Source: Ktedonobacterales bacterium
Lineage (GTDB): Bacteria; Chloroflexota; Ktedonobacteria; Ktedonobacterales; JADMIN01
Assembly (NCBI GenBank): GCA_030167145.1
Contig: CP126532.1
Coordinates: forward strand, 1,950,001-1,982,000
Direction: 5' to 3'
DNA: 32,000 nt
In this document: one piece after another, positions 191 to 30,195 of the stretch
Layout of the letters: each line of letters opens with the position of its first letter
Position numbering within the stretch: position 1 is the first letter of the stretch
Notes under the pieces: model-generated
What the model saw: only the letters and a program-made list of their open reading frames with translations
What the model was told of the DNA's origin: nothing
Database searches by the model: none
Translations under genes and position numbers: made by a program

Positions 191-2266
191 CTACTCCGTC
201 TTGATGAGGCCCGCGCCGATGTGCTCTTTGATGCGCTCGGCCAGGTCGGCGCTGATGCCCTCCACCTCTGCTAGCTCTGCCGTGCTCGCCGCCGCGATGC
301 CCCGCGCGGAGCCGAAGCGGCGAATCAGCGCCTTCTTGCGCTTCGGGCCGATGCCGGGGATTTCGTCCAGCAGCGAGCGGAACGTGCGCGTGCTGCGGAC
401 CTGCCGGTGATAGGTGATGGCGAAGCGGTGCGCCTCATCGCGTACCCGCTGCAAGAGATACAGCGCCTGCGACCCACGCGCCATCACCAGCGGCTCCACC
501 TGCTCCACCAGATAGATCTCCTCGTGGGTGCTGATGCTGCCGTGGTCCTCCTTGGCGATGCCGATCACCGGCACACCTACCGCCAGATCGCTCAGCACCG
601 CCAGCGCCGCGTTGAGTTGCGGACGCCCGCCATCCACCATCACCAGATTCGGCAGCAGCGCCCACGGATCGCCCACCGCGTCCGCGCTCGCCCCCTCCTC
701 GTTCGGCATCTCAGAGTCGTCTGGCGGCTGCAACCCATCGCCGCTATCTACGCTTTCCTCTACACCATCACCCTCCGGCTCCACTGCTTCCAGCGCAACG
801 GATTCCTGGGCATCGCCAGCGTCGCCGGTCGTCAGCAGCCGCTTGAAGCGCCGCCGCAGCACTTCTTGCAGGCTCGCCACATCGTTCTGCCCTTCCACCG
901 CCTTGATCTTGAAGCGCCGGTAATCGCTGGTCTTGGGCTTGCCGCCCTCGAAGACCACCATCGAGCCGACCGCGCTGGTGCCCTGGATGTTCGAGATGTC
1001 GTAGCATTCGATGCGCTGCGGCGGCGACGGCAGGTTCAGCGTCTCGCCCAGCTCTTCCAGCGCCATCGCCGTCTTCTGCGAATCCGAAAGCCACTTGATG
1101 CGCTGCTGCTCCAGCACCTCGCTGGCGTTCTGCGCCACCATCTCCACCAACCGCAGCTTGTCGCCCCGCTGCGGTAAGGTCAGCGTCACCACCGCTCCGC
1201 GCTTCTGCCGCAGCCACTGGCGCAGCGCCTCGCCGTTCTCCGGCTCGTGCTGCACGACCACCTCAGCCGGAATGTGCGGCGCGGAATCGTAGAACTGCTG
1301 CAAAAACGACGCCATAATCTCGCCCGGCTCGGTATCGCGCGTGCCCTGCAAGAGGAAGTATTCGCGCCCAGCCAGCTTGCCGCCCCGGAAGAAGAACACT
1401 TGCGCGCAGGTCTCGTCATCCGCGCCCGCCAGCGCCACCACGTCCTGATCGCCCGGCCCAGTGGTGTTGATGATCTTCTGCTTCTCCAGCACCTGCTCTA
1501 CGGCGCGCACGCGGTCGCGCAGCGCCGCCGCTCGCTCGAACTCCAGGTTCTCCGCCGCCTCGGCCATCTGCGCCTTCAGATCGGCCAGCGCCTCATCATG
1601 CTTGCCTTCTAGGAAGAGCATCACCTGGCGGATCACCGCGTCGTACTGCTCGCGGGTGGCGTTGCCCACGCACGGCGCGTTGCAGCGGTGGATGTAGTAC
1701 TGTGTGCAGGGGCGCGGCAGATACTTCTGCTTCCACTCCGCTGGTGGGTGCTCCTCCTGCCCGCGCGGCGGCGCCCAGGGCGAGCCATCATAGCGGCAGG
1801 TGCGATAGGGAAACAGTTTGTTCATCAGGTCCAGCGTCGCGTCCACGGCGCCTGAATTGGTGTAGGGTCCGAAGTAGCGGTTGCCGTCGCGCCGGAAGCT
1901 GCGTACGCGGTAGACACGCGGGAAATCTTCGGTGAGCGCGACTTTGATGTAGGGGTAGTTTTTGTCATCGCGCAGCCGCACATTGTATTTGGGCTGATAC
2001 TGCTTGATGTATTCGTTTTCGAGGATCAGCGCCTCGATCTCGCTGGCGACGACGATGAATTCGATGTCGGCGATCTTCGCCACCAGCGCGCGATTCTTCG
2101 GACTCAGTTCGCTGGGGTCCACGAAATACTGGCGCACGCGCTGGTGCAGCGAGGTCGCCTTGCCGACATAGAGCACGTGCCCATCCGCATCCTTGTGCAG
2201 ATAGATGCCCGGCTTGTGCGGCAGCGAGTTGAGCACCGCTTGCAGTTTTTCCGAGAGTTCGCGCAT
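191..2266 (-). CDS. uvrC: excinuclease ABC subunit C (UvrC)
   Basis: N-terminal GIY-YIG region (GIYLHKDADGHVLYVGKA...ENEYIKQYQPKYN), UvrBC-type central region, and C-terminal endonuclease plus HhH motifs (IPGIGPKRKKALIRRFGS). I chose the ATG at 2264-2266 (MRELSEKL...) over the longer track ORF start at 2401. Confidence 0.95.
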   Translation of the reverse strand: MRELSEKLQAVLNSLPHKPGIYLHKDADGHVLYVGKATSLHQRVRQYFVDPSELSPKNRALVAKIADIEFIVVASEIEALILENEYIKQYQPKYNVRLRDDKNYPYIKVALTEDFPRVYRVRSFRRDGNRYFGPYTNSGAVDATLDLMNKLFPYRTCRYDGSPWAPPRGQEEHPPAEWKQKYLPRPCTQYYIHRCNAPCVGNATREQYDAVIRQVMLFLEGKHDEALADLKAQMAEAAENLEFERAAALRDRVRAVEQVLEKQKIINTTGPGDQDVVALAGADDETCAQVFFFRGGKLAGREYFLLQGTRDTEPGEIMASFLQQFYDSAPHIPAEVVVQHEPENGEALRQWLRQKRGAVVTLTLPQRGDKLRLVEMVAQNASEVLEQQRIKWLSDSQKTAMALEELGETLNLPSPPQRIECYDISNIQGTSAVGSMVVFEGGKPKTSDYRRFKIKAVEGQNDVASLQEVLRRRFKRLLTTGDAGDAQESVALEAVEPEGDGVEESVDSGDGLQPPDDSEMPNEEGASADAVGDPWALLPNLVMVDGGRPQLNAALAVLSDLAVGVPVIGIAKEDHGSISTHEEIYLVEQVEPLVMARGSQALYLLQRVRDEAHRFAITYHRQVRSTRTFRSLLDEIPGIGPKRKKALIRRFGSARGIAAASTAELAEVEGISADLAERIKEHIGAGLIKTE

Positions 2267-2497
2267 CGTGTTTCCCACCACATCACGGTTGAGAGTGTGT
2301 CCGCAGAGGGCAGTCAGGCGTCTATATGGCAGAGTACGCGCCGCCGCCACGCCCGTCGCGCGACCGCGCCGCCGAAAGTGCATGATGATTGACCGGCACA
2401 CACCACCAGCGTATTATACGCTGAGATGTGTACGCGCGGCGCAGGCGACAAGCGACGCGCCTACCACCAAGACCATACCAGAGGGAGCACGCAGGGG

Positions 2498-3343
2498 ATG
2501 CCCAAGACAGCAAATAAGCGAGCCGATGCCCGCCGGGTGGCGCGGGTGCAGCAGGCCCACCAGATGGCCCCGGAGCCAGTCATTTCGCGGCGAATACCCG
2601 CTGCGGCGCACCAGAATGAGCCACGTGGACCACTGGCTGTCATTCGCGACTATCCCTGGGCTTCGACGCTCTTCGTCGCGCTGGTCATCGCCGTGATCCT
2701 GCTGGTGCTGCATGGCGAGCGGCTGGGACCGTGGGCGCCCGCCGCCGCGCAGCCCGCCGCTTCGTGCAACCTCAAAACACACGTCTGCAACCACGCGCCC
2801 AAGATGACGATTGACCTCAATAAGGTCTATACCGCCACCATCAAGACAGCGAAGGGCGACATCGTGATGGAACTGGATACAGCGAACGCCGCCAACAACG
2901 TTAACAACTTCGTGTGGCTGGCGGATCAGCACTTCTACGATGGACTGCCCTTCTGGCGGGTGGAGACGGTGAATCAGGTCAGCGCCGTGACAGGCGTGCC
3001 GTCCAGCATTGGCATCGTGCAGGGCGGCGCGGGCGGCAAGAATGGCGGTCCCGGCTACACCATCGCCAACGAGCCGCCTCCGGCTGGCTACGTGGAGGGG
3101 ACGGTGGCGATGGCCAATGGCTCGCAGTTCTTCATCTCCACGGTGGATAATACGCAGGCGATTGCCAACAGCCCTTACCCGGTCATCGGCAAGATCACCT
3201 CGGGCCTGGATGTCGCGAAGAGTCTGACAGTGGGTGATGTGATTCAGACGATCACCATCACCGTCAGCAACCCCACGCCGACACCCGCGCCGTCGCCGAC
3301 CAGCACGGCGCTGCCAACCGCCGTCCCCACCAACACACCGTAG
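2498..3343 (+). CDS. cyclophilin-type peptidyl-prolyl cis-trans isomerase with a basic N-terminus, one TM helix and a Pro/Thr-rich tail
   Basis: Cyclophilin core (GDIVMELD...NFVWLADQHFYDGLPFWRVE...GGPGYTIANE...GTVAMANGSQFFIS). TM segment ASTLFVALVIAVILLVL. ATG at 2498 preceded by GAGGGAG at 2481-2487. Confidence 0.9.
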   Translation: MPKTANKRADARRVARVQQAHQMAPEPVISRRIPAAAHQNEPRGPLAVIRDYPWASTLFVALVIAVILLVLHGERLGPWAPAAAQPAASCNLKTHVCNHAPKMTIDLNKVYTATIKTAKGDIVMELDTANAANNVNNFVWLADQHFYDGLPFWRVETVNQVSAVTGVPSSIGIVQGGAGGKNGGPGYTIANEPPPAGYVEGTVAMANGSQFFISTVDNTQAIANSPYPVIGKITSGLDVAKSLTVGDVIQTITITVSNPTPTPAPSPTSTALPTAVPTNTP

Positions 3344-3378
3344 GCAGCGGGACGGGGCGCAAGTCACGATAACACGCG

Positions 3379-3412
3379 AACGGGCGGGAGCTTCGGTTCC
3401 TGCCCGTTTTCT
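3379..3412 (+). terminator. rho-independent terminator after the PPIase gene
   Basis: 12-bp stem AACGGGCGGGAG / TTCCTGCCCGTT (two G-U pairs), loop CTTCGG, followed by TTCTC. Confidence 0.6.
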
Positions 3413-3484
3413 CATTGTGCGCCTATTAACCAAATGTGATAGTATGAAATGCGTCCGAGGGACACTATATGGGGAGAAATCGCA

Positions 3485-3709
3485 ATGGCAAAGATGCTGG
3501 AGCATCAGACGAACAACAAACGGAAGGCCACAAAGCATAGCGCCAGATTTGCCGCAAAGCGCGTGTCCATTCCTGCCCCCCGTCGTCTCCGCGCCACAAT
3601 AACTCCAGAGCAGTACCCCACTATGACCGCCTCTGGCCGGGCATTCCTTGCGCGTATGGCGGCGAACCCCGATATCCATGTCGTTATGCGTGACCTTGCT
3701 GACAAATAG
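3485..3709 (+). CDS. small basic protein, putative antitoxin partner of the downstream Doc toxin
   Basis: 74-aa ORF (MAKMLEHQTNNKRK...). GGGGAG SD lies 7 nt upstream of the ATG at 3485. It ends 19 nt before the doc start. I recognise no Phd-like sequence, so the role is inferred from position only. Confidence 0.5.
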   Translation: MAKMLEHQTNNKRKATKHSARFAAKRVSIPAPRRLRATITPEQYPTMTASGRAFLARMAANPDIHVVMRDLADK

Positions 3710-3728
3710 GTAAGGATTGCCTCGGATT

Positions 3729-4316
3729 ATGAACAGACGCCATTTGCTTCCGCATGTGGCGCCTTATCCTTTTCCTCCCAATGTTTCCGTTGAAGATGGC
3801 TATGGGATTGTCATTACAGACCTCTACGGAGATGTGCGCGGCTTCCATGAGTATGTTCTTGGACGCTATGGCGGCTCATCCGGCATCCGGTCCGAAGCAT
3901 TGCTCCGCTCGGCTATTGAACGACCGTTTTCCAGTCTTGGCGCTGATCTGGCTTATCCAACGGGTTTGGAACAGGCAGCAGCATTACTGCATTCGCTCGT
4001 CAATAATCATCCCTTTGTAGACGCGAATAAACGCACTGCATTTCTGGCATGTTTGTACTTCCTGGAACGATGTAGATACTGGCATGAAGACGTGTTTCTG
4101 AATCGTGCGGAAGCGTTTGCATTGGAGCGACTGGTTATTGACCTTGCACGAGAAAGCGAAGATCTTACTCATCGTAGACTTCAGACTCCTTATACCATAG
4201 AGGATATTGCGCGCCAGCTTGACCGCATACTACATGGATCGCGAAACCGCCGCCTGACACAGAGGCGGTTTCGCTCAGGGGTATTTCGTCGGTTGGGTAA
4301 TCTATTCGAACGCTAA
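3729..4316 (+). CDS. doc: Fic/Doc family toxin (death-on-curing type)
   Basis: Doc-type Fic motif HPFVDANKRTAF, preceded by RYGGSSGIRSEALLRSAIERP. AAGGA SD before the ATG at 3729 (the alternative TTG at 3717 is the track start). GC content is visibly lower than in the flanks. Confidence 0.85.
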   Translation: MNRRHLLPHVAPYPFPPNVSVEDGYGIVITDLYGDVRGFHEYVLGRYGGSSGIRSEALLRSAIERPFSSLGADLAYPTGLEQAAALLHSLVNNHPFVDANKRTAFLACLYFLERCRYWHEDVFLNRAEAFALERLVIDLARESEDLTHRRLQTPYTIEDIARQLDRILHGSRNRRLTQRRFRSGVFRRLGNLFER

Positions 4317-4454
4317 CATTTCACTGTTTCCACCGCGCCATGCGCTAGCGGTGATATGTGGTGGATGTGCCATAATGCGCGCAGATGACAAGCCAGAGTT
4401 CAGGCGCGCGCATGACTCTACGCGGGCGGCGTGCGCCAAGGGAGGGTCGCGCAC

Positions 4455-6104
4455 ATGCATGGTCTGATGCAAGAATACCCACTGACCATCCAGCACTTGT
4501 TTACTCGTGGCACACGGCTCTTTCCAAGGAAGGAAATCGTCACCCGCACGGACGACGGCTATCACCGCTACACCTACGCCGACTTCGCCGAGCGCGTGCA
4601 ACGGCTGGCGAACGCGCTCACCACGATGGGCATCCGGCCGGGCGACCGCGTGGCGACCTTTGGCTGGAACACCTACCGGCATCTCGAACTCTACTTCGCG
4701 ATCCCCTGCATGGGCGCGGTGCTGCACACGCTCAACATCCGCCTGTTCACCGAGCAGATCGAGTATGTCATCGCCGATGCCGAGGACCAGGTAATCTTCG
4801 TAGACGCTGACCTCGTGCCGCTGCTGGAGAAGCTCGCGGGGCGCATGCCCACAGTGCGCGCCTACGTCATCATGGGCAAGCCCGCCGCCGAGACGACACT
4901 CGCGCCCGCCTATGATTACGAAGACCTGCTCGCCTCAGCCTCCGCGCACTACGACTGGCCGATGGTGGACGAGAACAGCGCCGCCGCGATGTGCTACACC
5001 TCTGGCACCACCGGCAACCCCAAGGGCGTCGTCTACAGCCATCGCTCGGTCTACCTGCACTCCTTCGGGGTGTGCATGGCGGATAGCCTGGGGCTGAGCG
5101 AGCGCGATGTGGTGCTGCCCGTGGTGCCGATGTTCCATGCCAACGCCTGGGGTCTGGCGCATGCCGCGATCATGACTGGCTCGAAGCTGATGCTGCCGGG
5201 GCGCAACCTGGGTGGGGCGCAGTTGGTGGAGATGATCGAGCAGGAGCGCGTGACCGTGCCCGCGGGCGTGCCGAGCATCTGGATTGGGCTGCTGGCCTAT
5301 CTGGAACGACTCTCGGTCGAGAAGCCGATCATGCCTGATCTCTCGTCGGTCCGCGCGGTTCCGTGCGGCGGCTCGGCGATTCCACCGGCGCTGATGCGCG
5401 GCTTCGACCGCTTCGGCCTGCCGCTGCTGCACGCCTGGGGGATGACCGAAACGTCGCCGCTGGCGTCGGTCAGCCGGGTGAATAGCGGGGCGCTGGATGG
5501 GACATACGAAGAGAAGCTGGCGATTCGCTCGAAGCAGGGCCAGCCAGTGCCGGGTGTAGATTGCCGCGTGGTGAACCTCGACACGGGTGAGGAGGTTCCG
5601 CGCGATAGCACGAGCGTTGGCGAGATACAGGTGCGCGGCCCGTGGATTGCCCGCGCGTATTACCACGATGAGGGCAACACCGAGAAGTTCATGGACGGCT
5701 GGCTGCGTACCGGCGATGTGGCGACGGTGGACGCCGACGGCTATTTGCAGATCGTGGATCGCACCAAAGATTTGGTGAAGTCCGGCGGCGAGTGGATCTC
5801 GTCGGTGGAGCTTGAGAACTTGATTATGGCGTATCCGAAGGTGTTGGAAGCCGCCGTGATCGGCGTGCCACATGCGGTGCTGCAAGAGCGGCCCGTCGCC
5901 TATGTGGTGCCCAAGCCGGAGTACACGGACCAACTCACTGCCGATGAGATTCTGGAGTACCTGCGGCCGCAGGTGGCGAAGTGGTGGCTGCCAGATCAGG
6001 TGCTCTTCATTGACGCCATCCCGAAGACCAGCGTTGGCAAGTTCAGCAAGCGCGAGCTGCGCGACCGCTATGCCGTGGAGGGCGCTGCCACGGCAGCAGA
6101 CTGA
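4455..6104 (+). CDS. fadD: AMP-dependent synthetase, long-chain fatty-acid--CoA ligase family
   Basis: AMP-binding motif YTSGTTGNPKGVVYSH, GWLRTGD, and the C-terminal PKTSVGKFSKRELR lysine motif. GGGAGG SD before the ATG at 4455. Confidence 0.9.
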   Translation: MHGLMQEYPLTIQHLFTRGTRLFPRKEIVTRTDDGYHRYTYADFAERVQRLANALTTMGIRPGDRVATFGWNTYRHLELYFAIPCMGAVLHTLNIRLFTEQIEYVIADAEDQVIFVDADLVPLLEKLAGRMPTVRAYVIMGKPAAETTLAPAYDYEDLLASASAHYDWPMVDENSAAAMCYTSGTTGNPKGVVYSHRSVYLHSFGVCMADSLGLSERDVVLPVVPMFHANAWGLAHAAIMTGSKLMLPGRNLGGAQLVEMIEQERVTVPAGVPSIWIGLLAYLERLSVEKPIMPDLSSVRAVPCGGSAIPPALMRGFDRFGLPLLHAWGMTETSPLASVSRVNSGALDGTYEEKLAIRSKQGQPVPGVDCRVVNLDTGEEVPRDSTSVGEIQVRGPWIARAYYHDEGNTEKFMDGWLRTGDVATVDADGYLQIVDRTKDLVKSGGEWISSVELENLIMAYPKVLEAAVIGVPHAVLQERPVAYVVPKPEYTDQLTADEILEYLRPQVAKWWLPDQVLFIDAIPKTSVGKFSKRELRDRYAVEGAATAAD

Positions 6105-11257: not shown

Positions 11258-12310
11258 TTATTCGCTGAGAGACCTAACCCCCGGCCCCTTCCCTACGAGG
11301 GAAGGGGAGCGCAGAGAGCGCTCGGCGGGCTTCACGGTGCTTGCCCTACGAGGGAAGGGGAGCGCAGAAGCGTGGTGTTGCGCCTTGGAATGGCTCGGAG
11401 GGGCCGCTGCGCGGCGCTGGCGGTGGGTGAGGGCGGGCGCTTTTTTCGCCGTTTTCGCCGCTGCTTTTGTGGCGATTTTCGCCGTTTTCGCCGCTGCTGC
11501 GGATTCAGCAGGAGTAGCAGACGCGGCGGAAGGTGGGGTCGGAGGCGTAGGCGCTTCGGGGGTGGTGGAGGCGGCGCGGGGTTGGCGGTCGTAGAGGCCA
11601 AGCAGGCGGGCCATTTCGCGGTTGGCGCTGAGGGCGAGCCGCAGGTATTGGACGGGGTGGGTGGTGTCGCGCGGGCGGGCGTAGCGCTCGTCGAGGATCT
11701 GGGCAGGAGCGGCGGGAGCGGCGGGAGCGGCGGGAGCGGCGGGAGCGGCGGGAGCGGCGGGAGCGGCGGGAGATGCGGGGATAGTAGTCGCCGTTTTCGC
11801 CGCTGATGCGCTTCGCACGCTGGGGGCGGAGGCGGGGGCGGGGCGGGTGGTGCGGCGGGTGAGGTGGTCGTAGGCGCCCTGGTAGAGCTGCTCTTGGCGC
11901 TCGCGGTCGGTGTGGAAACCCTCCCAGGCGGCGGCGAGGACACTGCGCTGCCGCTCGACGGCGAGGGACTGTTGCTCGGCGCGCTGCTGCTGGGAGACGG
12001 GGGCGAGCTGGGTGCGGATGGCGCGCAGCCAGTCGCGGACGGTGCGGGCGGGGACGCCGAGTTCGGCGGCGATGGTGGGGGAACGTTCGCCCTGGCAGTA
12101 CAGTTCCCAGGCGCGGTCTTGCAGGAGTTGGCGCTGCTGGGCGGCGGGGGTGAGGAGATGCGGGAGGTCGGCGCGGATGGGCGTGGGGGTGGGATCGGTG
12201 GGGGGAGTAGGATCGGCGGGAGACGGTTTCGCCGTTTTCGCCGTTTTCGCCGCTGTGTGGGCATCGGCGGAGATGGGGTCGGTGGTGGGGTGGGCGAGGG
12301 CGGTGGCCAT
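11258..12310 (-). CDS. repetitive Ala/Lys/Pro-rich protein with one helix-turn-helix
   Basis: ATG at 12308-12310 with an AAGGAG SD ([10 protein letters not shown]...). [30 protein letters not shown]-type repeats, a (PAA)n tract and a conserved-looking segment [21 protein letters not shown]. The upstream 94 codons of the track ORF lie in repeat DNA and are not included. Confidence 0.6.
11278..11368. repeat. hairpin repeat CCCCCGGCCCCTTCCC-TACGA-GGGAAGGGG plus a second 25-bp copy
   Basis: CCCTACGAGGGAAGGGGAGCGCAGA occurs at 11291-11315 and again at 11344-11368. Both copies lie inside the last ~35 codons of the HTH ORF. Confidence 0.8.
11446..12254. repeat. exact 18-nt motif TCGCCGTTTTCGCCGCTG present four times
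   Basis: Copies at 11446-11463, 11479-11496, 11788-11805 and 12237-12254, plus an overlapping half-unit at 12228-12242. They encode the AAKTAK peptide units on the minus strand. Confidence 0.9.
11702..11773. repeat. 9-bp in-frame microsatellite (GGCGGGAGC)n
   Basis: Six perfect units at 11711-11764, flanked by one imperfect unit on each side. They encode (PAA)n. Confidence 0.95.
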
Positions 12311-12337
12311 GGGGGTTACTCCTTGCTGTGTGCTGGT

Positions 12338-12573
12338 GATGGTGGAACGGGCCGCCGAAATGGCGGTGGGTAAACGGCGGGCAGACAGGAATGTCCGCCC
12401 CACTGCTGAGATGGCGGCGCTACGAAGGACGGGCGTCCGCCGGACGCCTCGACACAGGTGGGCGGTGGTGGTACGCGGAACGGGCCGCCGAGATGGCGGC
12501 GCTACGAAGGACGGGCGTCCGCCGGACGCCCCTACGATGGTGGGTGGTTGAGATGACGGTGGTACGCGGGACG
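12338..12573. repeat. intergenic mosaic of short hairpin repeats
   Basis: GAGATGGCGGCGCTACGAAGGACGGGCGTCCGCCGGACGCC occurs at 12408-12448 and 12490-12530. GGGCAGACAGGAATGTCCGCCCCAC (12379-12403) is related to 24462-24489 and 31681-31704. Confidence 0.85.
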
Positions 12574-12589
12574 ACAATCGGGCGGGGAG

Positions 12590-12657
12590 CAACGAGAAAG
12601 CGCCGCGCGGTCGCCTGGGGCATGGGAGTGGATGGCCCAGGGCGGGTGCGCGGCGCT
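12590..12657 (-). terminator. long stem-loop terminator after the DUF4236 gene
   Basis: AGCGCCGCGC (12599-12608) pairs with GCGCGGCGCT (12648-12657), with an inner CCTGGG/CCCAGG stem. On the minus strand it is followed by TTTCTCGTT. Confidence 0.55.
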
Positions 12658-21148: not shown

Positions 21149-21225
21149 GGGCGATTAGCTCAGTTGGTTAGAGCGCCACGTTGACATCGTGGAGGTCGGG
21201 GATTCGAGCTCCTCATCGCCCACCA
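21149..21225 (+). tRNA. tRNA-Val: tRNA-Val (anticodon GAC) with encoded CCA
   Basis: Cloverleaf: acceptor GGGCGAT/ATCGCCC, D-arm GCTC-AGTTGGTTA-GAGC, anticodon stem CCACG/CGTGG with loop TTGACAT, T-arm GGGGA-TTCGAGC-TCCTC, then ACCA. Confidence 0.95.
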
Positions 21226-21236
21226 GAAATCTTGAG

Positions 21237-21268
21237 AGCCGCCGGGGAAGCACCCTGGCGGCTTTGTG
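21237..21268 (+). terminator. terminator hairpin after tRNA-Val
   Basis: AGCCGCCGGGG-AAGCA-CCCTGGCGGCT followed by TTGTGG. Confidence 0.55.
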
Positions 21269-21335
21269 GTATGCTGAGGTCACGCTCGGTGATCACTACG
21301 GTTGCGGCACGACTGACGAGATGGGAGGCACGAAC

Positions 21336-21617
21336 ATGAGCCATACAGTTCAGGTGCCTGACGAGCTATATGACAAACTCGCCAGCTATGCGAGAGAGCA
21401 GGGTTCGACACCTGACGATATGCTGATTGCCTGGGTAGCTGAGATTGTGCGGCGGACGGAAGAGCGTCAAGCGCGCCAGGAGGAAGCGGAAGAAGTGGCG
21501 GACGATCCCATCGCGCCGTTCATTGGCGCATTCACGTTTGGTGTGGGCGACCTGGCCGAGCGGCATGATAGCTATCTGGCGGAGGGTTATGCGAACACAC
21601 GTGAGCCTGGAGAGTAG
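21336..21617 (+). CDS. VapB-like antitoxin
   Basis: 93-aa ORF MSHTVQVPDELYDKLASYAREQGSTPDDMLIAWV... with a GGGAGG SD. It overlaps the start of the downstream PIN gene. Confidence 0.65.
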   Translation: MSHTVQVPDELYDKLASYAREQGSTPDDMLIAWVAEIVRRTEERQARQEEAEEVADDPIAPFIGAFTFGVGDLAERHDSYLAEGYANTREPGE

Positions 21618-22029
21618 TATCTTCGTTGATACGTCAGGATGGGTGAGTCTCATCGGCGAAGATGAGACATTTCACGATGAGATTACGGCTATCTATCAGG
21701 AAGCGATGCGGCAGAGATGCCGTTTGATCACCACCAACTATATCGTGACCGAAGTGGTGGCGCTGCTGACCAATCGCCCAATTGTTCCGCGTCAACGCAT
21801 GATTGCCTTTGTGGACGCGCTGAAAGCCGCGCCGCATGTGCAGATCGAGTTTGTTGATCGCGCCATAGATGATGTTGCCTGGGTGCGTATCAAGGAACGA
21901 TCAGAACGAGATTGGTCGTTGGTGGATGCGAGCAGCTTCATTTTGATGGAGCAGTTCAACGTCATCCAGGCATTGACGCTGGACCACCATTTTGAGCAGG
22001 CTGGATTCATTCGATTGCCCACTCCATAG
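21589..22029 (+). CDS. vapC: PIN-domain toxin (VapC family)
   Basis: The acidic PIN residues are in the expected order: IFVDTSGW, VTEVV, LVDASSF, TLDHHF. The start is ATG 21589 or GTG 21601, overlapping the antitoxin stop. Confidence 0.8.
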   Translation: MRTHVSLESSIFVDTSGWVSLIGEDETFHDEITAIYQEAMRQRCRLITTNYIVTEVVALLTNRPIVPRQRMIAFVDALKAAPHVQIEFVDRAIDDVAWVRIKERSERDWSLVDASSFILMEQFNVIQALTLDHHFEQAGFIRLPTP

Positions 22030-24597: not shown

Positions 24598-26046
24598 ATG
24601 CGGACGCTGATTGCGGGCGGGACGATTGTAACGGCGAGTGATACGTATCAGGCGGATGTGTTGATCGAGGATGAGCAGATCGTGAGCGTCGGCCACGGGC
24701 TGGCGGCGGATACGACGATTGACGCGAGCGGGAAGTATGTGATTCCGGGCGGGATTGATGTGCATACGCATCTGGATATGCCGTTCGGGGGGACGGTGTC
24801 ATCGGATGATTTCTTCACGGGGCATCGCGCGGCGGCGTTTGGGGGGACAACGACGCACATAGATTTCGCGATTCAGCCGAAGGGGGCGACGCTGCGCGAG
24901 ACGCTGGACATGTGGCAGGCGAAGGCGAAGGGCAAGGCGGCGATAGATTACGGCTTCCACCTGGCGATTACCGATCTGCCGGAGCGCGTGATGAAGGAGA
25001 TTGCCCAGGCGCCGGAGTGGGGTGTGACGAGCCTGAAGCTGTTCATGGCGTACAAGGGCGCGCTGATGATTGATGATGCGACGCTCTTCAGCGCGCTGGA
25101 GCAGGCGGCGGCGCATGGGCTGCTGACGATGGTGCATGCGGAGAACGGCGACGCGATTGATATTCTGGTGAAGCAGGCGCTGGACGCGGGGCATACAGAG
25201 CCGAAGTATCACGCGCTGACGCGACCGGCGGAGTTGGAGGCGGAGGCGACGAACCGGGCGATCCGGCTGGCGGAGGTGGCGGGCGCGCCGCTCTACGTGG
25301 TGCATGTGACGAACGCGGGGGCGGTGGAGGCGATCCGGCTGGCGCGCGGGCGTGGCAAGCCAATCTATGGTGAGACCTGCGTGCAGTACTTCTTCTTCAC
25401 CAAGGATGATCTGGCGCGGCCTGGATTCGAGGGGGCGAAGTGGGTCTGCTCGCCGCCGTACCGCGAGAAGAGCGACCAGGAGGCGCTATGGCAGGCGGTG
25501 GGGATTAATGATTTGCAGGTGATCTCGACAGACCACTGCCCATTCTGGTATGAGGGCGGGCAGGATGGGCGTCCGGCGGGGAAGGAACTGGGCAAGGGCA
25601 ATTTCGCGAAGATTCCGAATGGCTGTCCTGGCATCGAGGACCGGATGATGGTGCTCTATACGCATGGCGTCGGCGGCGGGCGGTTCTCGCTGAATCGCTG
25701 GGTGGAGTTGTGCTGCACGAATCCGGCGAAGCTCTTCGGCATCTATCCGCAGAAGGGTGTGATTGCGCCGGGGAGTGACGCGGATGTGGTGGTGTGGGAT
25801 CCGAAGGCAACGCATACGATCAGCGCGAAGACGCATCACCAGCGGACGGACTATAACCTGTACGAGGGGATGAAGATGACGGGGATGCCGGTGGTGGTGC
25901 TCTCGCGCGGGCGGGCGCTGGTGCGCGACGGGCAGTGGCAGGGCGAGCCGGGCGCGGGGAAGTTCCTGAAGCGGCAGCGGTTTGGCGGCAAGCGCGAGGC
26001 GGCGCCACCCAAGGCAGCGGCGGCTGCGGGTTCGCGGAAGCAGTAG
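24598..26046 (+). CDS. hydA: dihydropyrimidinase / D-hydantoinase
   Basis: Metal-binding GGIDVHTHLDMPF, the carboxylated-lysine context SLKLFMAYKG, VHAENGD and STDHCPF. Confidence 0.9.
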   Translation: MRTLIAGGTIVTASDTYQADVLIEDEQIVSVGHGLAADTTIDASGKYVIPGGIDVHTHLDMPFGGTVSSDDFFTGHRAAAFGGTTTHIDFAIQPKGATLRETLDMWQAKAKGKAAIDYGFHLAITDLPERVMKEIAQAPEWGVTSLKLFMAYKGALMIDDATLFSALEQAAAHGLLTMVHAENGDAIDILVKQALDAGHTEPKYHALTRPAELEAEATNRAIRLAEVAGAPLYVVHVTNAGAVEAIRLARGRGKPIYGETCVQYFFFTKDDLARPGFEGAKWVCSPPYREKSDQEALWQAVGINDLQVISTDHCPFWYEGGQDGRPAGKELGKGNFAKIPNGCPGIEDRMMVLYTHGVGGGRFSLNRWVELCCTNPAKLFGIYPQKGVIAPGSDADVVVWDPKATHTISAKTHHQRTDYNLYEGMKMTGMPVVVLSRGRALVRDGQWQGEPGAGKFLKRQRFGGKREAAPPKAAAAAGSRKQ

Positions 26047-26065
26047 CGAAGAGAACAAGTACAAT

Positions 26066-26097
26066 GAGGTCGCGTGGGAGGCGCGGCCTCGTTTTTC
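26066..26097 (+). terminator. rho-independent terminator
   Basis: GAGGTCGCG-TGGGAGG-CGCGGCCTC followed by GTTTTT. Confidence 0.7.
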
Positions 26098-26121
26098 TTG
26101 TTGTAACGAGGGGAAGGGCGT

Positions 26122-26331
26122 ATGGCGACTCGCGTAATTCTGGTCATCGCTGGGGTGTTTGCTTTCATCGGTATGGCATACATGCTGCTTGCGCTCTTCG
26201 CAGTGCGTTCCGTTGAAAACGGGGTATCCCGTCATATCATTGACGGAACTGGGATCACGCGGGGTGCGTCTCTCATAATCCTGGCAGTGGTACTCGCGGT
26301 GATCGCTTTTGTAGTGCGATCTGGCCGCTAA
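26122..26331 (+). CDS. small two-TM membrane protein
   Basis: 69-aa ORF with two hydrophobic helices, a GAGGGGA SD, and its own terminator at 26366-26401. Confidence 0.45.
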   Translation: MATRVILVIAGVFAFIGMAYMLLALFAVRSVENGVSRHIIDGTGITRGASLIILAVVLAVIAFVVRSGR

Positions 26332-26365
26332 AAGTATCCCCCACTCCAAAAATGCACAGGATACG

Positions 26366-26401
26366 AAGCCCTTGGCTGGGAGTGCCAGGGGCTTTCTCGT
26401 T
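26366..26401 (+). terminator. rho-independent terminator
   Basis: AGCCCTTGGC-TGGGAGT-GCCAGGGGCT followed by TTCTCGTT. Confidence 0.6.
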
Positions 26402-26416
26402 GCGTTGACCCATTTC

Positions 26417-26466
26417 ACGGCTCGCCGGTGAAGAAGTGACGGACGTCGGCGAGTTCGATGCTGCGG
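26417..26466. repeat. displaced copy of the helicase gene 3' end (left direct repeat of the DinD island)
   Basis: 47/50 identical to 27844-27893. On the minus strand it still reads RSIELADVRHFFTGEP followed by a stop codon at the same position as in the live gene. Confidence 0.9.
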
Positions 26467-26516
26467 AATCTTGCCCGGACAGGGATTATGAGATAGTGTA
26501 TAATGTATTATAGACA

Positions 26517-26525
26517 TGTTATAAT
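26517..26525 (+). promoter_or_regulatory. extended -10 TGTTATAAT at the left end of the island
   Basis: Perfect TGnTATAAT, preceded by a second TATAAT that lies within the palindrome TATAAT-GT-ATTATA (26499-26512). Confidence 0.5.
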
Positions 26526-26612
26526 GGAATATAAAACCCTGTGGGCTATGTTGTCCCTGAGTGCGGGTGGTTGCAATTTCTTCGTGCAGACGTAGCGGAA
26601 GAAGGCAGAGTC

Positions 26613-26849
26613 ATGGGCGACAATGTTCCAGCGACAAGCGAGGCGAGCGGTCGGTGGGTCAACTTCGGCGCCTTTCAGAAGGCGGTTGGTCGTCCGCAAC
26701 TCAATGTGCGCTTTGCGGTCAAGGCCCTCGGCAAAATGCCACGTCGTAAGCCAGATGACCAGCGTTTCACGCAGTACAATCTTGACTGGGCTGATGAGGT
26801 ACGCGAGTACCTTGATAGTCTGGGGAACCCAGTCTCTCCAAATGCCTGA
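26613..26849 (+). CDS. hypothetical 78-aa protein
   Basis: ATG at 26613 after GAAGAAGG. It lies directly upstream of the dinD-like gene. I recognise no family. Confidence 0.45.
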   Translation: MGDNVPATSEASGRWVNFGAFQKAVGRPQLNVRFAVKALGKMPRRKPDDQRFTQYNLDWADEVREYLDSLGNPVSPNA

Positions 26850-26899
26850 GAAGTTGCATCTTTGCGTAGCGTAGCCGCGCGCGGCTTGGAGGCTCCAGC

Positions 26900-27820
26900 T
26901 TGAGCGATTCGGAGAACACGAACACCACTGATAGTGATGACTCCCAGGATGACGCTAAGGCAGGGTTTGATTCCATCCGCCAGATCAGCCCCTATGGCGC
27001 GGAGTATTGGAGTGCACGGGATCTGTATCTCTTGCTCGGCTACGACACTTGGCGACGGTTTGAAACAGCCATCGAGCGCGCAAAAATAGCCTGTGCGAAC
27101 ATGGGCGAAGAGGTCGCCGATCATTTTGCCGGAGCCGTCAAGATGATCGAGGTCGGCAAAGGCGCGCAGCGAGAAGCCAGTGACTATGCGCTCTCGCGCT
27201 TCGGCTGCTACCTCACGGCCATGAACGGCGACCCACGCAAGCCAGAGATCGCGAATGCCCAGGGATACTTCGCAGTCCAGACGCGCCGAATGGAGCAATG
27301 GGACGAACTGCGCGAGTCGCTTGCTGAGCGTGCCGAGCGGCGGCAGCAACTTACGGAAGCTAACAAGCACTTGAATGCGACTGCGCAGGTACATGGACTG
27401 GAGCGCCACTCGTTCGGGCGTCTCCACGACGCTGGGACAAAGGGCCTTTATGGTGGTCGGTCAGTTCATGACCTGAAGACAATCAAAGGGATTGCGGGGA
27501 AAGAGGACTTCGCCGACCGCATGGGACTGGAGGAGTTGGCCGCGAACCTTTTTGTACGCACGCAAACCGAGGCCAAGGTGCGCAATGAACAGATACGGGG
27601 CAGCGATGCAATCGTGGGCGCGCACTACGAGGTGGGCGCAGAAACGCGGACGGTCATCGAGCGAATCGGCGGCACCAAGCCAGAGGAACTGCCAGCAGAG
27701 CCATCCATTCGTCCGCTACTTGCCCAACGTGAGCGCCAGAGCAAGAAGCAACTTCCGCAGCAAGATGGACCGACGCTCTTTGATGATCTTGGGCCATCCG
27801 ATGACGATAAGCCCCAATAG
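26900..27820 (+). CDS. dinD: DNA-damage-inducible protein D (DinD) family
   Basis: FDSIRQISPYGAEYWSARDLYLLLGYDTWRRFETAIERAK...YALSRFGCYLTAMNGDPRKPEIANAQGYFA...RLHDAGTKGLYGG matches my recollection of DinD proteins. TTG start with a GGAGG SD 6 nt upstream. Confidence 0.7.
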   Translation: MSDSENTNTTDSDDSQDDAKAGFDSIRQISPYGAEYWSARDLYLLLGYDTWRRFETAIERAKIACANMGEEVADHFAGAVKMIEVGKGAQREASDYALSRFGCYLTAMNGDPRKPEIANAQGYFAVQTRRMEQWDELRESLAERAERRQQLTEANKHLNATAQVHGLERHSFGRLHDAGTKGLYGGRSVHDLKTIKGIAGKEDFADRMGLEELAANLFVRTQTEAKVRNEQIRGSDAIVGAHYEVGAETRTVIERIGGTKPEELPAEPSIRPLLAQRERQSKKQLPQQDGPTLFDDLGPSDDDKPQ

Positions 27821-27841
27821 CTTGCGCATGACGGTCGGACA

Positions 27842-29827
27842 CTACGGTTCGCTGGTGAAGAAGTGGCGGACGTCGGCGAGTTCGATGCTGCGGCGGGCAG
27901 GGGGCAGCGCGGCGAGCACCTGGCGCCCGTAGCTCTTGGTGTGGAGGCGTTTGTCGAGGATGGCCATGACGCCACGGTCGTCGTGGGTGCGCAGCAGGCG
28001 CCCGATGCCTTGCTTGAGGCGCAGGATGGCGAGCGGCAGGGTATACTCGCCGAACCAGTTTTGGCCGGCGTCTTTCATGCGGGTGACGCGGGCTTCGTTG
28101 ACGGGGTCGTCGGGGGGATCGAAGGGGAGTTTGTCTATGACGACGAGCGAGAGCGCTTCGCCGACGATGTCTACGCCTTCCCAAAAGCTTTTGAGGCCAA
28201 AGAGGACGGCGCTGGGTAGCTCGCGGAACTGGCGCAGCATTTCGATGCGGGCAAGGTCGCGGCCCTGGACGATGAGTGAGTAGCCGTCGGCGGTGAGGTC
28301 ATCGGCGAGGCGCTCATGCACGCCGCGCAGGGCGGCATTGCTGCTGAAGAGGAGGAATGCGCGGCCTGCGGAGGCTTCGACCAGGGCGCGCATCTGTTCG
28401 GCCAGCTCGTCCAGATAGGGGCCGCTGGCAGCGCCATACGCTGGCTCCAGCCGCATGCGGGGGACGTAGAGCAGGGCGTGGGCGCGGTAGTCGAAGGCGA
28501 GGGGCAGCACGACCTCTTTGGCGGCATCTAGCCCGACGCGCGAGCGGAAGAAGCGGAAGTCGCCGCCGACGGCGAGGGTGGCGGAGGTGGCGATGGTGGG
28601 AATCTTGTCGAAGAGCTTTTCACGCAGCAGCGTGGTGACATCCAACGGCGCGGCGGAGACGCTGGGCTGGGGTCCGCGACGGCCCCGCTCGCCGGTCTGC
28701 TCGACGTAGTAGACGCGCTCTTCGGGCTGCTTGACGCCGAAGACGATGCGCAGGTCGGAGGCGAGGGAGCGAGTGCGTTTTACTAACTTTTCGTAGAGTT
28801 GCTCTTCTTTGGGGTCCATCTCTGGGGGGCGATGGAAAACGAGGTCGTTGGTTAGCTCGTCTATGGCGGAGGCGAGGCGCAGTCCTTCTTGTAGCGGCTC
28901 GGCAAGCAACTGGCGACCACGGGCGTCGGGGCGGGTGACGCGGGCGAGGGCGCCCCAGAGCATGGTGTCGGCGTCGGCGGCGTCTTGCAGTTTTTGCGCG
29001 TCTACGTTGCCCCGAAGACGGCGCTGGGCGAGGAGGGTTTGCACACGGCTAGGGGTGACGGTGACGGTGAAGGCGCGGGTAGCTTCTTCTTCGAGGTGGT
29101 GGGCTTCGTCAATAACGATGGTATCGCGTTCGGGCAGCAGCCAGCCATCCATGGCGGCGTCTATGAGCAGCAGGGTGTGGTTGACGACGATGACCTGGGC
29201 ATCCTCGGAGCGTTCGCGCATCTTGCGGACGTAGCAATCGTGATAGAAGGAGCAGGCGCGCCAGGCGCAGTTATCGCTATCGGTGGAGAGACGCCCGCGC
29301 ACGTCGGGTGGCAGCGCGCGGGGAAGCTGGTCGAAGTCGCCGTCCCAGTCGTCATCTTCGAGCGACTTCATCATGTCGTCGAAGGCGGGGGTATGGACGA
29401 ACTGCTGGAAGCTTTGCTCTTCTTGAAGGCGGTCGAGACATAGGTAGTTGCCCATGCCTTTGACGAGGGCGGCGCGGAAGTTGGTGACGTTTTGGCGGAT
29501 GAAGGGGATGTCTTTATAGAAGAGTTGCTCTTGCAGGTTTTTGTTGGCGGTGCTGATGAGGGCGACTTTGCCGGAGCGGACGATGGGAAGTAAGTAGGCC
29601 AAACTCTTCCCGGTGCCGGTCGCAGCCTCGATCACGAGAGGATGCCCGTTTTCCAGAGAGGCAGCGACGTGGCGGGCCATTTCGATTTGGGGAGGGCGCT
29701 CTTCGTAGCCGGGGAGGGCGCGTGAGAGGACGCCGCCCGCGCGGAGGTCCGTCTCGACCTGCTCGCGCAGGGGTTTCTCGTCGCCGTTGTCGTTCGCCAC
29801 TGCCGTCCCGCCTCCTACTCGTCTCAT
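27842..29827 (-). CDS. dinG: DinG/XPD-family ATP-dependent DNA helicase with Fe-S cysteines
   Basis: Walker A AATGTGKSLAYL, DEAH box VIDEAHHLEE, the cysteine cluster YLCLD...DNCAWRACSFYHDC, and C-terminal helicase motifs. Confidence 0.85.
   Translation of the reverse strand: MRRVGGGTAVANDNGDEKPLREQVETDLRAGGVLSRALPGYEERPPQIEMARHVAASLENGHPLVIEAATGTGKSLAYLLPIVRSGKVALISTANKNLQEQLFYKDIPFIRQNVTNFRAALVKGMGNYLCLDRLQEEQSFQQFVHTPAFDDMMKSLEDDDWDGDFDQLPRALPPDVRGRLSTDSDNCAWRACSFYHDCYVRKMRERSEDAQVIVVNHTLLLIDAAMDGWLLPERDTIVIDEAHHLEEEATRAFTVTVTPSRVQTLLAQRRLRGNVDAQKLQDAADADTMLWGALARVTRPDARGRQLLAEPLQEGLRLASAIDELTNDLVFHRPPEMDPKEEQLYEKLVKRTRSLASDLRIVFGVKQPEERVYYVEQTGERGRRGPQPSVSAAPLDVTTLLREKLFDKIPTIATSATLAVGGDFRFFRSRVGLDAAKEVVLPLAFDYRAHALLYVPRMRLEPAYGAASGPYLDELAEQMRALVEASAGRAFLLFSSNAALRGVHERLADDLTADGYSLIVQGRDLARIEMLRQFRELPSAVLFGLKSFWEGVDIVGEALSLVVIDKLPFDPPDDPVNEARVTRMKDAGQNWFGEYTLPLAILRLKQGIGRLLRTHDDRGVMAILDKRLHTKSYGRQVLAALPPARRSIELADVRHFFTSEP
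27844..27893. repeat. right direct repeat of the DinD island (the functional 3' end of the helicase gene)
   Basis: See 26417-26466. Confidence 0.9.
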
Positions 29828-29850: not shown

Positions 29851-29990
29851 CCGGAGCGGGCGGTTGAAACCGCGCCTGTATGGCGTGCCGCCGCAAAGCC
29901 CGCCTGCGCGGGCTGGAGATGGAGTGGATGTCCGCAGCAATTGGTAAGAGTGCATCATGGCCGGAGCACAACCGCGAGGACATAAATGCC
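29851..29990. repeat. dispersed-repeat mosaic
   Basis: It shares modules with 20951-21095 and 24324-24400: GCGGGCGGTTGAAACCGCGC, GCAATTGGTAAGAGTGCATCATGGCCGGAGCACAACCG and CATAAATGCC. Confidence 0.8.
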
Positions 29991-30025
29991 AGGGAACTCC
30001 GTGCGGAGGATCCTAGCAGGGGGCA

Positions 30026-30195
30026 GGATGGGTGATACAGGAAGCTCGCGGCATGAATGCCGCGGGTAATCCCGATTGGCAAGCTTGCCGCATAAATACA
30101 GCGACTCGTCTCGTGGCGAGAGAACAGCGGGTGGTGGGATGGGTGATACAGGAAGCTCGCGGCATGAATGCCGCGGGTAATCCCAATTGGCAAGC
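30026..30195. repeat. two copies of a 59-nt unit, 111 nt apart
   Basis: 30026-30084 and 30137-30195 are 58/59 identical. Each contains the hairpin CGCGGCAT-GA-ATGCCGCG. Confidence 0.9.

Follow-up and report, generated by a model that had tools for sequence, protein, structure and literature searches.

How did an operon that encodes no recombinase come to lie at the 3' end of a DNA helicase gene, between two near-copies of that gene end? This question is raised by a locus of a Ktedonobacterales bacterium (genome size 5.07 Mb), in which an orf78-dinD operon, composed of a gene for a 78-aa protein and a gene of the DinD family, separates a DinG/YoaA-like helicase gene from a displaced duplicate of its last 16 codons. 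We analysed this locus within a window, by which we mean the whole stretch of 32,000 nt (assembly GCA_030167145.1, contig CP126532.1, positions 1,950,001-1,982,000, forward strand), and compared it with related helicase loci and with other copies of the operon. The arrangement is a genuine insertion specific to this lineage and belongs to a general kind already known, namely integrase-less islets with att-like repeats. Our preferred explanation, still a tentative one with a probability of roughly 0.4, is att-type or Campbell-type integration of a circular DNA that carried a near-copy of the helicase gene end, the crossover having occurred within 27 nt that are identical in the two copies. As judged from its sequence, the insertion appears to add to the host a DNA-damage-response protein of the DinD/DdrC type under its own conserved promoter.

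The duplicated gene end and the operon between its copies

The insert is bounded by a direct repeat with 47 identical bases out of 50, which could not be extended in either direction even when gaps were allowed. The inner 27 nt of the repeat, CGGACGTCGGCGAGTTCGATGCTGCGG, occur exactly twice in the window, compared with an expectation of zero (100 shuffles, up to three mismatches). When the last 63 nt of the helicase gene were aligned to the 8 kb downstream, the local score was 44 at this locus and 7-20 at a control set of about 85 related helicase loci. By these measures the 50-nt repeat is real and far beyond chance, in agreement with the original prediction, made from the letters alone, of a 50-bp duplication of the gene end. 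The right copy forms the functional end of the helicase open reading frame (ORF), which reads ...RSIELADVRHFFTSEP (...FFTSEP) up to a TAG stop codon (27842-27844). The left copy has lost its attachment to the gene and can be read in frame as ...RSIELADVRHFFTGEP up to a TGA (26415-26417), the two stop codons being equal in position and different as codons. Between the left and right copies the exchanges GAG/GAA and CGT/CGC are synonymous, and GGC/AGC replaces Gly by Ser; translation thereby confirmed that the displaced copy keeps its frame and stop position and that two of its three substitutions are silent, as had been claimed. All three differences fall within the outer 23 nt of the repeat, and five fall within the outer 26 nt if the stop codon is counted. 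Were the differences placed at random, such clustering would have a chance of 0.09 (C(23,3)/C(50,3)), or of 0.023 with the stop codon (C(26,5)/C(53,5)).

The surroundings of the left copy indicate where the helicase gene once ended. This copy adjoins a terminator-like hairpin with a 12-bp stem (GAAGCCCUUGGC / GCCAGGGGCUUU), itself located 3' of the convergent gene for a 69-aa protein, as predicted for the displaced end. The hairpin has a folding energy of -28.9 kcal/mol on the + strand (z = -2.0), and the same hairpin forms on the - strand. Presumably it once served both the 69-aa gene and the helicase gene as their common terminator, and the position of the left copy beside this bidirectional terminator was counted in favour of an original gene end at that place.

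Between the repeats, only orf78 and dinD were found, preceded by an AT-rich promoter region. The GC content of the insert is 0.570 in comparison with 0.626 for the window, and GC at third codon positions (GC3) is 0.60 in orf78 and 0.66 in dinD in comparison with 0.79-0.84 in host genes. The operon retains a GC content of 0.57-0.60 in other hosts, in which the GC content of the flanks ranges from 0.56 to 0.64. The expectations of a lower GC content, of an AT-rich promoter and of a gene content limited to a 78-aa ORF and a DinD-family gene were all upheld. Domain scans covered the island together with those ORFs of the window that were scanned, and profile searches detected no recombinase or transposase domain between the repeats; neither an insertion sequence (IS) nor an integrase remnant, either of which would have spoken for an ordinary mobile element, came to light in the island. 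No terminal inverted repeats were present at the insert (score 7 against a shuffled mean of 7.1), again as had been stated, and no known Rfam RNA family was found in the island.

The promoter region is conserved in all six cassettes, namely the one in the window and the five other copies described below, with an invariant TGTTAT..TGGA and an ATTAT upstream of it; its core is the extended -10 element TGTTATAAT. A promoter scan of positions 26000-28000 gave five promoter-like sites against 0.7 expected. A near-consensus -35 element is present in some cassettes (TTAACA in L083). The AT-rich stretch also contains the short palindromes ACATGT and GTTAAC, which could form an operator, and no recognised LexA box was identified in the promoter region of the operon.

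Counterparts of orf78 share 77-86% amino acid identity in five other contexts. Their dN/dS ratios of 0.12-0.21 indicate that orf78 is therefore a real gene under purifying selection, while its product had no match in Pfam, NCBIfam, PHROGs, PADLOC or PDB sequences. The gene was observed only upstream of the closest dinD clade and was absent before dinD copies of 76% identity or less (L092, L093 and L097). It is likely to encode a functional partner of DinD. The dinD product itself scored 293.6 bits with the NCBIfam model NF008573 (cutoff 242), of whose 288 positions 6-282 align to residues 16-286 of the protein. It also matched the PADLOC candidate defence family PDC-S13, on which the literature search returned no papers by that name.

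The helicase is conserved across Ktedonobacterales. A search of a collection of 5.8 billion protein clusters gave 6805 homologues, the nearest of which was 79% identical. We compared the locus with 80 genome loci of related helicases, about 58 of them from Ktedonobacterales, and with the contigs that carry the two nearest homologues obtained in the protein search. At none of these loci does a dinD gene, a gene for the 69-aa protein or an amidohydrolase gene lie downstream of the helicase, and no duplicated helicase gene end was present at the sampled loci, the approximately 58 Ktedonobacterales loci included. The GNAT gene upstream of the helicase is common to only one sampled locus. In public data, no other genome was found to encode a protein with at least 90% identity to the 69-aa protein, the orf78 product, the amidohydrolase or the helicase. 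As the Ktedonobacterales loci and the two closest homologues all lack the arrangement, we regard the insertion as lineage-specific; the case in which all relatives would share it, which would have pointed to an old fixed duplication, did not occur. An ancient duplication fixed throughout the clade, or an artefact of assembly, is accordingly extremely improbable: the non-identity of the repeats is all that speaks for it, while the arrangement is missing from every sampled relative and three assemblies agree. An independent Logan assembly (SRR22113990) showed 0 mismatches to the window along 8695 bp, and the gene order recurs in a JGI assembly, because of which an artefact was ruled out. The positions of the features are collected in Table 1.

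Table 1. Features of the helicase gene end, the insert and their neighbours; positions refer to the window unless a contig is named.
Feature	Position	Strand	Remarks
Small membrane-like ORF	26122..26331	+	69 aa; left neighbour, convergent with the original helicase end; from the ORF list
Terminator-like hairpin	26365..26395		12-bp stem; folds on both strands
Left repeat copy (attL-like)	26417..26466	-	displaced last 16 helicase codons
Identical 27-nt core, left copy	26440..26466		candidate crossover region
Insert	26467..27843	+	1377 bp; orf78-dinD operon with own promoter
Extended -10 element	26517..26525	+	core of AT-rich promoter region, about 26488-26540
orf78	26613..26849	+	78 aa, MGDNVPATSE...NPVSPNA
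dinD	26900..27820	+	306 aa; N-terminal Bro-N and C-terminal helical domain, DdrC-like fold (predicted)
Junction, dinD stop to right repeat	27821..27843		23 nt; overlaps first two bases of helicase stop
Right repeat copy (attR-like)	27844..27893	-	functional last 16 helicase codons
DinG/YoaA-like superfamily-2 DNA helicase gene (target)	27842..29827	-	661 aa; Helicase_C_2 and DEAD domains
orf78 copy in L082	7722-7958		
orf78 copy in L083	7674-7910		
orf78 copy in L087	3312-3548		
orf78 copy in L096	3479-3715		
orf78 copy in L091	~314-526		

Routes by which the operon may have entered

In the explanation that we prefer, the operon, comprising the AT-rich promoter, orf78 and dinD, would have entered the interval that separates the helicase stop codon from the former terminator, through a reciprocal recombination spanning the final ~50 bp of the gene and by way of a circular intermediate. 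The incoming DNA would have carried a near-copy of the helicase end, and the crossover would have taken place inside the 27 nt that are now identical. The left repeat would then be the resident gene end, stranded beside the old terminator, and the right repeat would supply, from the incoming DNA, the codons that now form the helicase C-terminus (Ser for Gly, GAA for GAG and TAG for TGA). We infer the circular intermediate, the position of the crossover and the nature of the enzyme, which would be a recombinase encoded outside the island that acted in trans or was lost later. Since no recombinase is present in the island, the island would be an islet of the cis-mobilisable element (CIME) type that is unable to move by itself.

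Several features are consistent with this course of events. First, direct repeats of some tens of base pairs that duplicate the 3' end of a gene are the classic signature of site-specific integration. Second, differences confined to the outer part of the repeat form the pattern expected from a crossover between similar, non-identical sites. Third, at the differing positions the right copy (GAA, AGC, TAG) is poorer in GC than the left copy (GAG, GGC, TGA); its bases there match the lower GC and GC3 of the insert and were counted for an incoming origin of the right copy. Fourth, homologues of dinD (35-48% identity) were found in 255 phage records and in at least 287 IMG/VR stretches, and in Streptococcus Javan satellites a cI-like repressor gene, dinD and an integrase gene lie together at the end of the element (L101, Javan622, 2096-5042). 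The frequency of dinD in phages and satellites marks it as common cargo of integrated elements, which was likewise counted for integration. A further dinD homologue was noticed in the Akkermansia phage Chantilly (L100).

The placement of the differences also bears on a simple target-site duplication, over which it weakly favours, as far as the two copies can be read, a crossover in the 27-nt core of the att or Campbell type. In a target-site duplication, a linear operon fragment, of other genomic or of foreign origin, would have been captured at a break with a stagger of about 50 nt, or template switching would have been followed by re-priming 50 nt behind, and fill-in would have made two identical copies, since altered by three to five substitutions. 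We consider such a course possible, if rather doubtful. The breakpoints would suit it, as they look arbitrary, about 20 nt before the conserved promoter and 16-22 nt past the dinD stop codon, and the insert ends short of a hairpin that follows dinD in L087. It would also need neither a recombinase nor an attP-like mimic of the gene end, and neither was seen here, the latter being looked for at the other copies of the operon. Weak constraint on the variable TSEP tail can account for differences that cluster there, given that relatives vary at their C-termini after the FF motif, and at the left junction there is a possible 3-nt microhomology (CGG|AATCT) with L091. This microhomology is too short, however, and the longer likeness of the L091 upstream DNA to the repeat (translated 'DIADV'; score 12) reaches only the 95th percentile of the background and was rejected as chance. 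A freely decaying left copy should moreover vary in the inner 27 nt, in which there are zero changes. A duplication beginning at the A of the stop codon would have relied on the end of the insert to supply by luck the AG that restores a stop (about 3 in 16), and one that took in the stop codon as a whole would call for two more substitutions. Finally, we know of no bacterial mechanism, transposition included, that produces target duplications of 50 bp.

The same mosaic, with a divergent outer part and an identical inner 27 nt, would also be left by RecA-driven acquisition from a close relative that already had the operon immediately downstream of its helicase gene. Here a single crossover, or homology-facilitated illegitimate recombination of a (circularised) fragment, would have brought in the operon together with the donor's gene end and left the resident end as the duplicate. 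A length of 27 nt is near the minimum for RecA-dependent exchange, and no dedicated recombinase would be required; furthermore, the incoming end differs by 3-5 nt, as would be the case for a very close relative, the sampled relatives being far more divergent. We nevertheless regard this route as unlikely: the operon lies next to the helicase gene in no sampled genome, public data contain no close relatives, and an extra step is required, in which the operon would first have been inserted in the donor and a circle then closed exactly 50 nt into the gene.

The orf78-dinD operon was found in at least four other Ktedonobacterales contexts (L082, L083-86, L087-88, L091 and L096), among which L083-86, L087-88 and L091 are partly related contexts that differ on one or the other side. 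The nucleotide similarity of these cassettes to the window is 73-80% and extends from ~26488-26502, in the promoter, to 27821-27836, past the dinD stop codon, and the other copies diverge from each other at those same operon boundaries. As a result of this comparison, only ~20 nt at the left and 7-22 nt at the right of the insert remain without a match in the other cassettes. In L096, a metagenomic contig, an IS transposase gene (HTH_28, HTH_32, rve; 2316-3182) is located directly upstream of the operon and a P-type ATPase gene after it. In L082 (4354-12227), the operon is situated between a RecD2-like helicase gene and recQ, with two interposed ORFs of 268 and 230 aa that have no family assignment; with this context, two of five contexts adjoin DNA helicase genes. 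The remark that it is curious for a damage-inducible gene to have landed in a repair helicase gene finds one parallel in L082 and otherwise stays an anecdote.

These narrow margins also bear on the possibility, which the original prediction had raised, of a decayed larger island. A prophage, a satellite, an integrative and conjugative element (ICE) or an integrative and mobilisable element (IME) would in that case have integrated with its own integrase and been trimmed to one operon, both att sites having been kept because attR encodes the helicase C-terminus. Such an origin would agree with dinD being typical cargo near the integrase and att ends of phages and satellites, and with the definition of a CIME; selection would protect dinD and the end of the helicase gene, and the present structure would be the maximal deletion compatible with both. 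On the other side, no remnant of any other element gene was left in the short unmatched DNA, no adjoining element sequence is common to the other copies of the operon, and one or two very precise deletions would be needed. We therefore hold a trimmed larger element to be quite unlikely, and the earlier suggestion of decay was not supported.

A number of observations weigh against integration by crossover at the gene end, or at least narrow it. No recombinase was found in the island or in the scanned ORFs of the window. The empty site was not found, and no sampled helicase locus shares the downstream synteny. Among 119 ORFs located up to 4.5 kb downstream of related helicases, the 25 families with most matches, a count that omits single-member families and is not exhaustive, included no integrase and consisted at the top of glycosyltransferases, acetyltransferases and similar proteins; the helicase end was for this reason rejected as a recurrent hot spot of integration and, as far as these gene families tell, does not act as one. 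The statistics of the crossover boundary are weak (p = 0.02-0.09), and relaxed constraint on the variable C-terminal tail could explain them. The 27-nt core was absent from the viral and metagenome contig collections. The island corresponds almost exactly to one conserved operon, with no trace of a decayed larger island, by which the analogy to an integrated element is partly undercut. The five other copies of the operon have no flanking direct repeats (best scores 8-15 compared with 42.5 here), and no sequence resembling the helicase end was present at them, the downstream flanks giving p = 0.24-0.99; it follows that the operon is not a dedicated helicase-targeting element carrying its own attP. 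The synonymous divergence from the nearest relatives is equally deep for dinD (dS 0.86-1.26) and for the helicase gene (0.62-1.29), which gives no sign of recent horizontal spread and again partly undercuts an integration of mobile DNA. Recent horizontal transfer was rejected as unproven, given this equal depth and the ambiguity of the difference in composition, and the higher protein identity of DinD would reflect constraint and not recent transfer. In sum, the att-like insertion put forward earlier persists as the most likely reading, with the arrangement absent from about 58 relatives, and is weakened by the repeat-free copies elsewhere and by the missing sign of recent spread.

Among known systems, the closest is the CIME, an element in which the integration genes are lost and attL and attR retained (PMC5704250). 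As in a CIME, the target gene's 3' end recurs in flanking direct repeats, the target is intact, and the DNA between contains cargo only. Att-like repeats at a gene end are present here as the 47/50 repeat of the last 16 codons, their att function being putative, and integration and transfer genes are absent. Derivation from an ICE or IME, in contrast, found no support, as there are no remnants and no related larger element at the other copies. The islet also differs from a CIME in its size of 1.4 kb, in consisting of exactly one operon with no decayed element genes, in the lack of any known cognate ICE, IME or integrase for the helicase-end site, in having other copies of its cargo without att-like repeats and in its host, a member of the Ktedonobacterales (Chloroflexota).

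Phages and satellites that integrate at gene 3' ends by tyrosine integrases provide a second comparison. Their attP carries a mimic of the target gene's end. The rebuilding of the gene end with few substitutions, with an identical core and a diverged outer part, is shared with the present locus, as is dinD, a common cargo of lysogeny modules (cI-dinD-int in Streptococcus Javan satellites). Unlike these elements, the islet has no integrase, no phage genes and no region of arm-type sites, and its 27-nt core was found in no viral contig. Integrative mobile elements exploiting Xer (IMEX), such as CTXphi and the gonococcal genetic island (GGI), are integrase-less and are integrated by the XerCD of the host at dif. 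They resemble the islet in having no recombinase and flanking direct repeats, and a host enzyme acting in trans would be needed in both; the repeat here differs in being GC-rich coding sequence with no dif-like ATAA-N6-TTAT core on inspection and in lying at a gene end and not at the replication terminus. An IS or transposon was rejected in view of the missing transposase, the missing terminal inverted repeats and a duplication of 50 bp against the usual 2-15 bp. An integron cassette was rejected as well, the operon having its own promoter, the repeat having no GTTRRRY core on inspection, and no intI being present among the scanned ORFs of the window.

If the repeats are functional att sites, the islet would rank among the smallest CIME-like islets on record, being reduced to a single operon, and in Chloroflexota it would be the first known from the 3' end of a DinG-like helicase gene. 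It would also show a damage-response gene parked at a repair gene without harm to that gene. Being a single, unreplicated event, it is of limited general importance, a modest and mostly ordinary islet.

DinD and its relation to DdrC

The island itself seems less remarkable than the relation of the DinD family to DdrC. DdrC is a damage-induced protein of Deinococcus radiodurans that binds DNA breaks. The AlphaFold2 model of DinD had a pLDDT (predicted local distance difference test) of 88, and in a Foldseek search its six best PDB matches were all DdrC (7udi, 8u0g and 7qvb), with E-values of 1e-7 to 3e-5 and a probability of 1.0 over ~240 columns. The match extends over full-length DdrC, at an identity of only 20-22%, and the TM (template modelling) scores are low (0.3-0.47) because the orientation of the domains differs. 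In addition, a profile built from 43 DinD proteins matched the C-terminal domain of DdrC (residues 117-226) with E = 5e-4. From the model and the profile, the DinD family appears to be homologous to DdrC. Among viral structures, the model matched Bro-N/KilA-N antirepressor-like proteins. A 2024 paper in Nucleic Acids Research described ddrC as having no identifiable sequence homologues outside Deinococcus (PMC11347143), and in the open literature DinD and DdrC were found named together only in a 2013 review. DinD is a widespread and poorly understood SOS protein and a candidate defence gene product (PADLOC PDC-S13), and in Ktedonobacterales its gene moves together with a promoter and a gene for a 78-aa partner, both of them conserved.

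Published work reports that DdrC circularises and compacts DNA, which bears on the idea that orf78-dinD might be a minimal, integrase-free mobile cassette able to bring about its own insertion by a new mechanism, in which long stretches of the target become duplicated at gene ends. We judge this very improbable. The route imagined for it, of the same small probability, would be that a DdrC-like DinD holds nicks ~50 nt apart or circularises the cassette, which host repair then pastes in; among its PDB and viral structure matches, the DinD model bore no resemblance to a recombinase or a nuclease.

E. coli DinD (PcsA), whose gene is LexA-regulated, belongs to the same protein family (NF008573 above cutoff) with 41% identity. 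Its gene differs from the one studied here in being fixed between yicC and yicG in 5425 of 5426 complete genomes, with no orf78 and no flanking repeats; on account of this single chromosomal locus, E. coli dinD was rejected as a mobile islet. In some strains (L183), the upstream neighbour of E. coli dinD is replaced by a gene of a DEAD/DEAH helicase family or by an ISL3-like insertion. As cited in PMC4457935, Uranga et al. (2011) characterised E. coli DinD as an inhibitor of RecA filaments.

The helicase gene and the surroundings of the insert

The target helicase scored below the equivalog cutoffs of both of its nearest named families, with 545.9 bits against 680 for YoaA and 389.5 against 598 for DinG. 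By these scores it would be a member of the broader Rad3/DinG-like superfamily-2 group and not a DinG or YoaA equivalog. Several Ktedonobacterales homologues of the helicase (P0061, P0101, P0109, P0114 and P0118) are ~1070-1100 aa long and contain PF14528 (LAGLIDADG_3). Their domain content suggests that the long homologues contain an intein, and the helicase gene may in relatives be the target of another selfish element.

At the right end of the insert, the stop codons of dinD (27818-27820) and of the helicase gene (27842-27844) converge with 21 nt between them. No terminator was detected between the two genes, folds of 27800-27900 being no better than those of shuffled sequences, and the former terminator of the helicase gene is now 1.4 kb away. 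Antisense read-through is predicted in both directions between dinD and the helicase gene.

At the left side, gene calling in both the Logan and the JGI assembly included the 69-aa ORF, and its product had no family match. Its GC3 of 0.57 is as atypical as that of the island, the surrounding genes having 0.79-0.84; the 69-aa gene may itself be acquired DNA, or may not be a real gene.

Between the start of the helicase gene and the GNAT gene, two copies of a 70-nt intergenic repeat (30015-30084 and 30126-30195) are 93% identical. Each contains an internal hairpin, GCTCGCGGCAT-GAA-TGCCGCGGGT; the repeat resembles repetitive extragenic palindromes (REP) or miniature inverted-repeat transposable elements (MITE), and no tandem array was detected by Tandem Repeats Finder (TRF). 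A GC-rich hairpin upstream of the helicase gene (29892-29915) gave a single sub-threshold Rfam match to CRISPR-DR28 (34.1 bits, cutoff 35, E = 0.0017), which, with no array in the vicinity, is probably due to chance. Elsewhere in the window, accessory-looking genes include one for a Fic/DOC protein (3717-4316) and a toxin-antitoxin-like group of a tRNA-Val, a small ORF and a PIN-domain protein, in that order (21149-22029), and a 444-aa ORF (11258-12592) whose only matches are HTH_23 and, weakly, Terminase_5 is possibly transposase-like.

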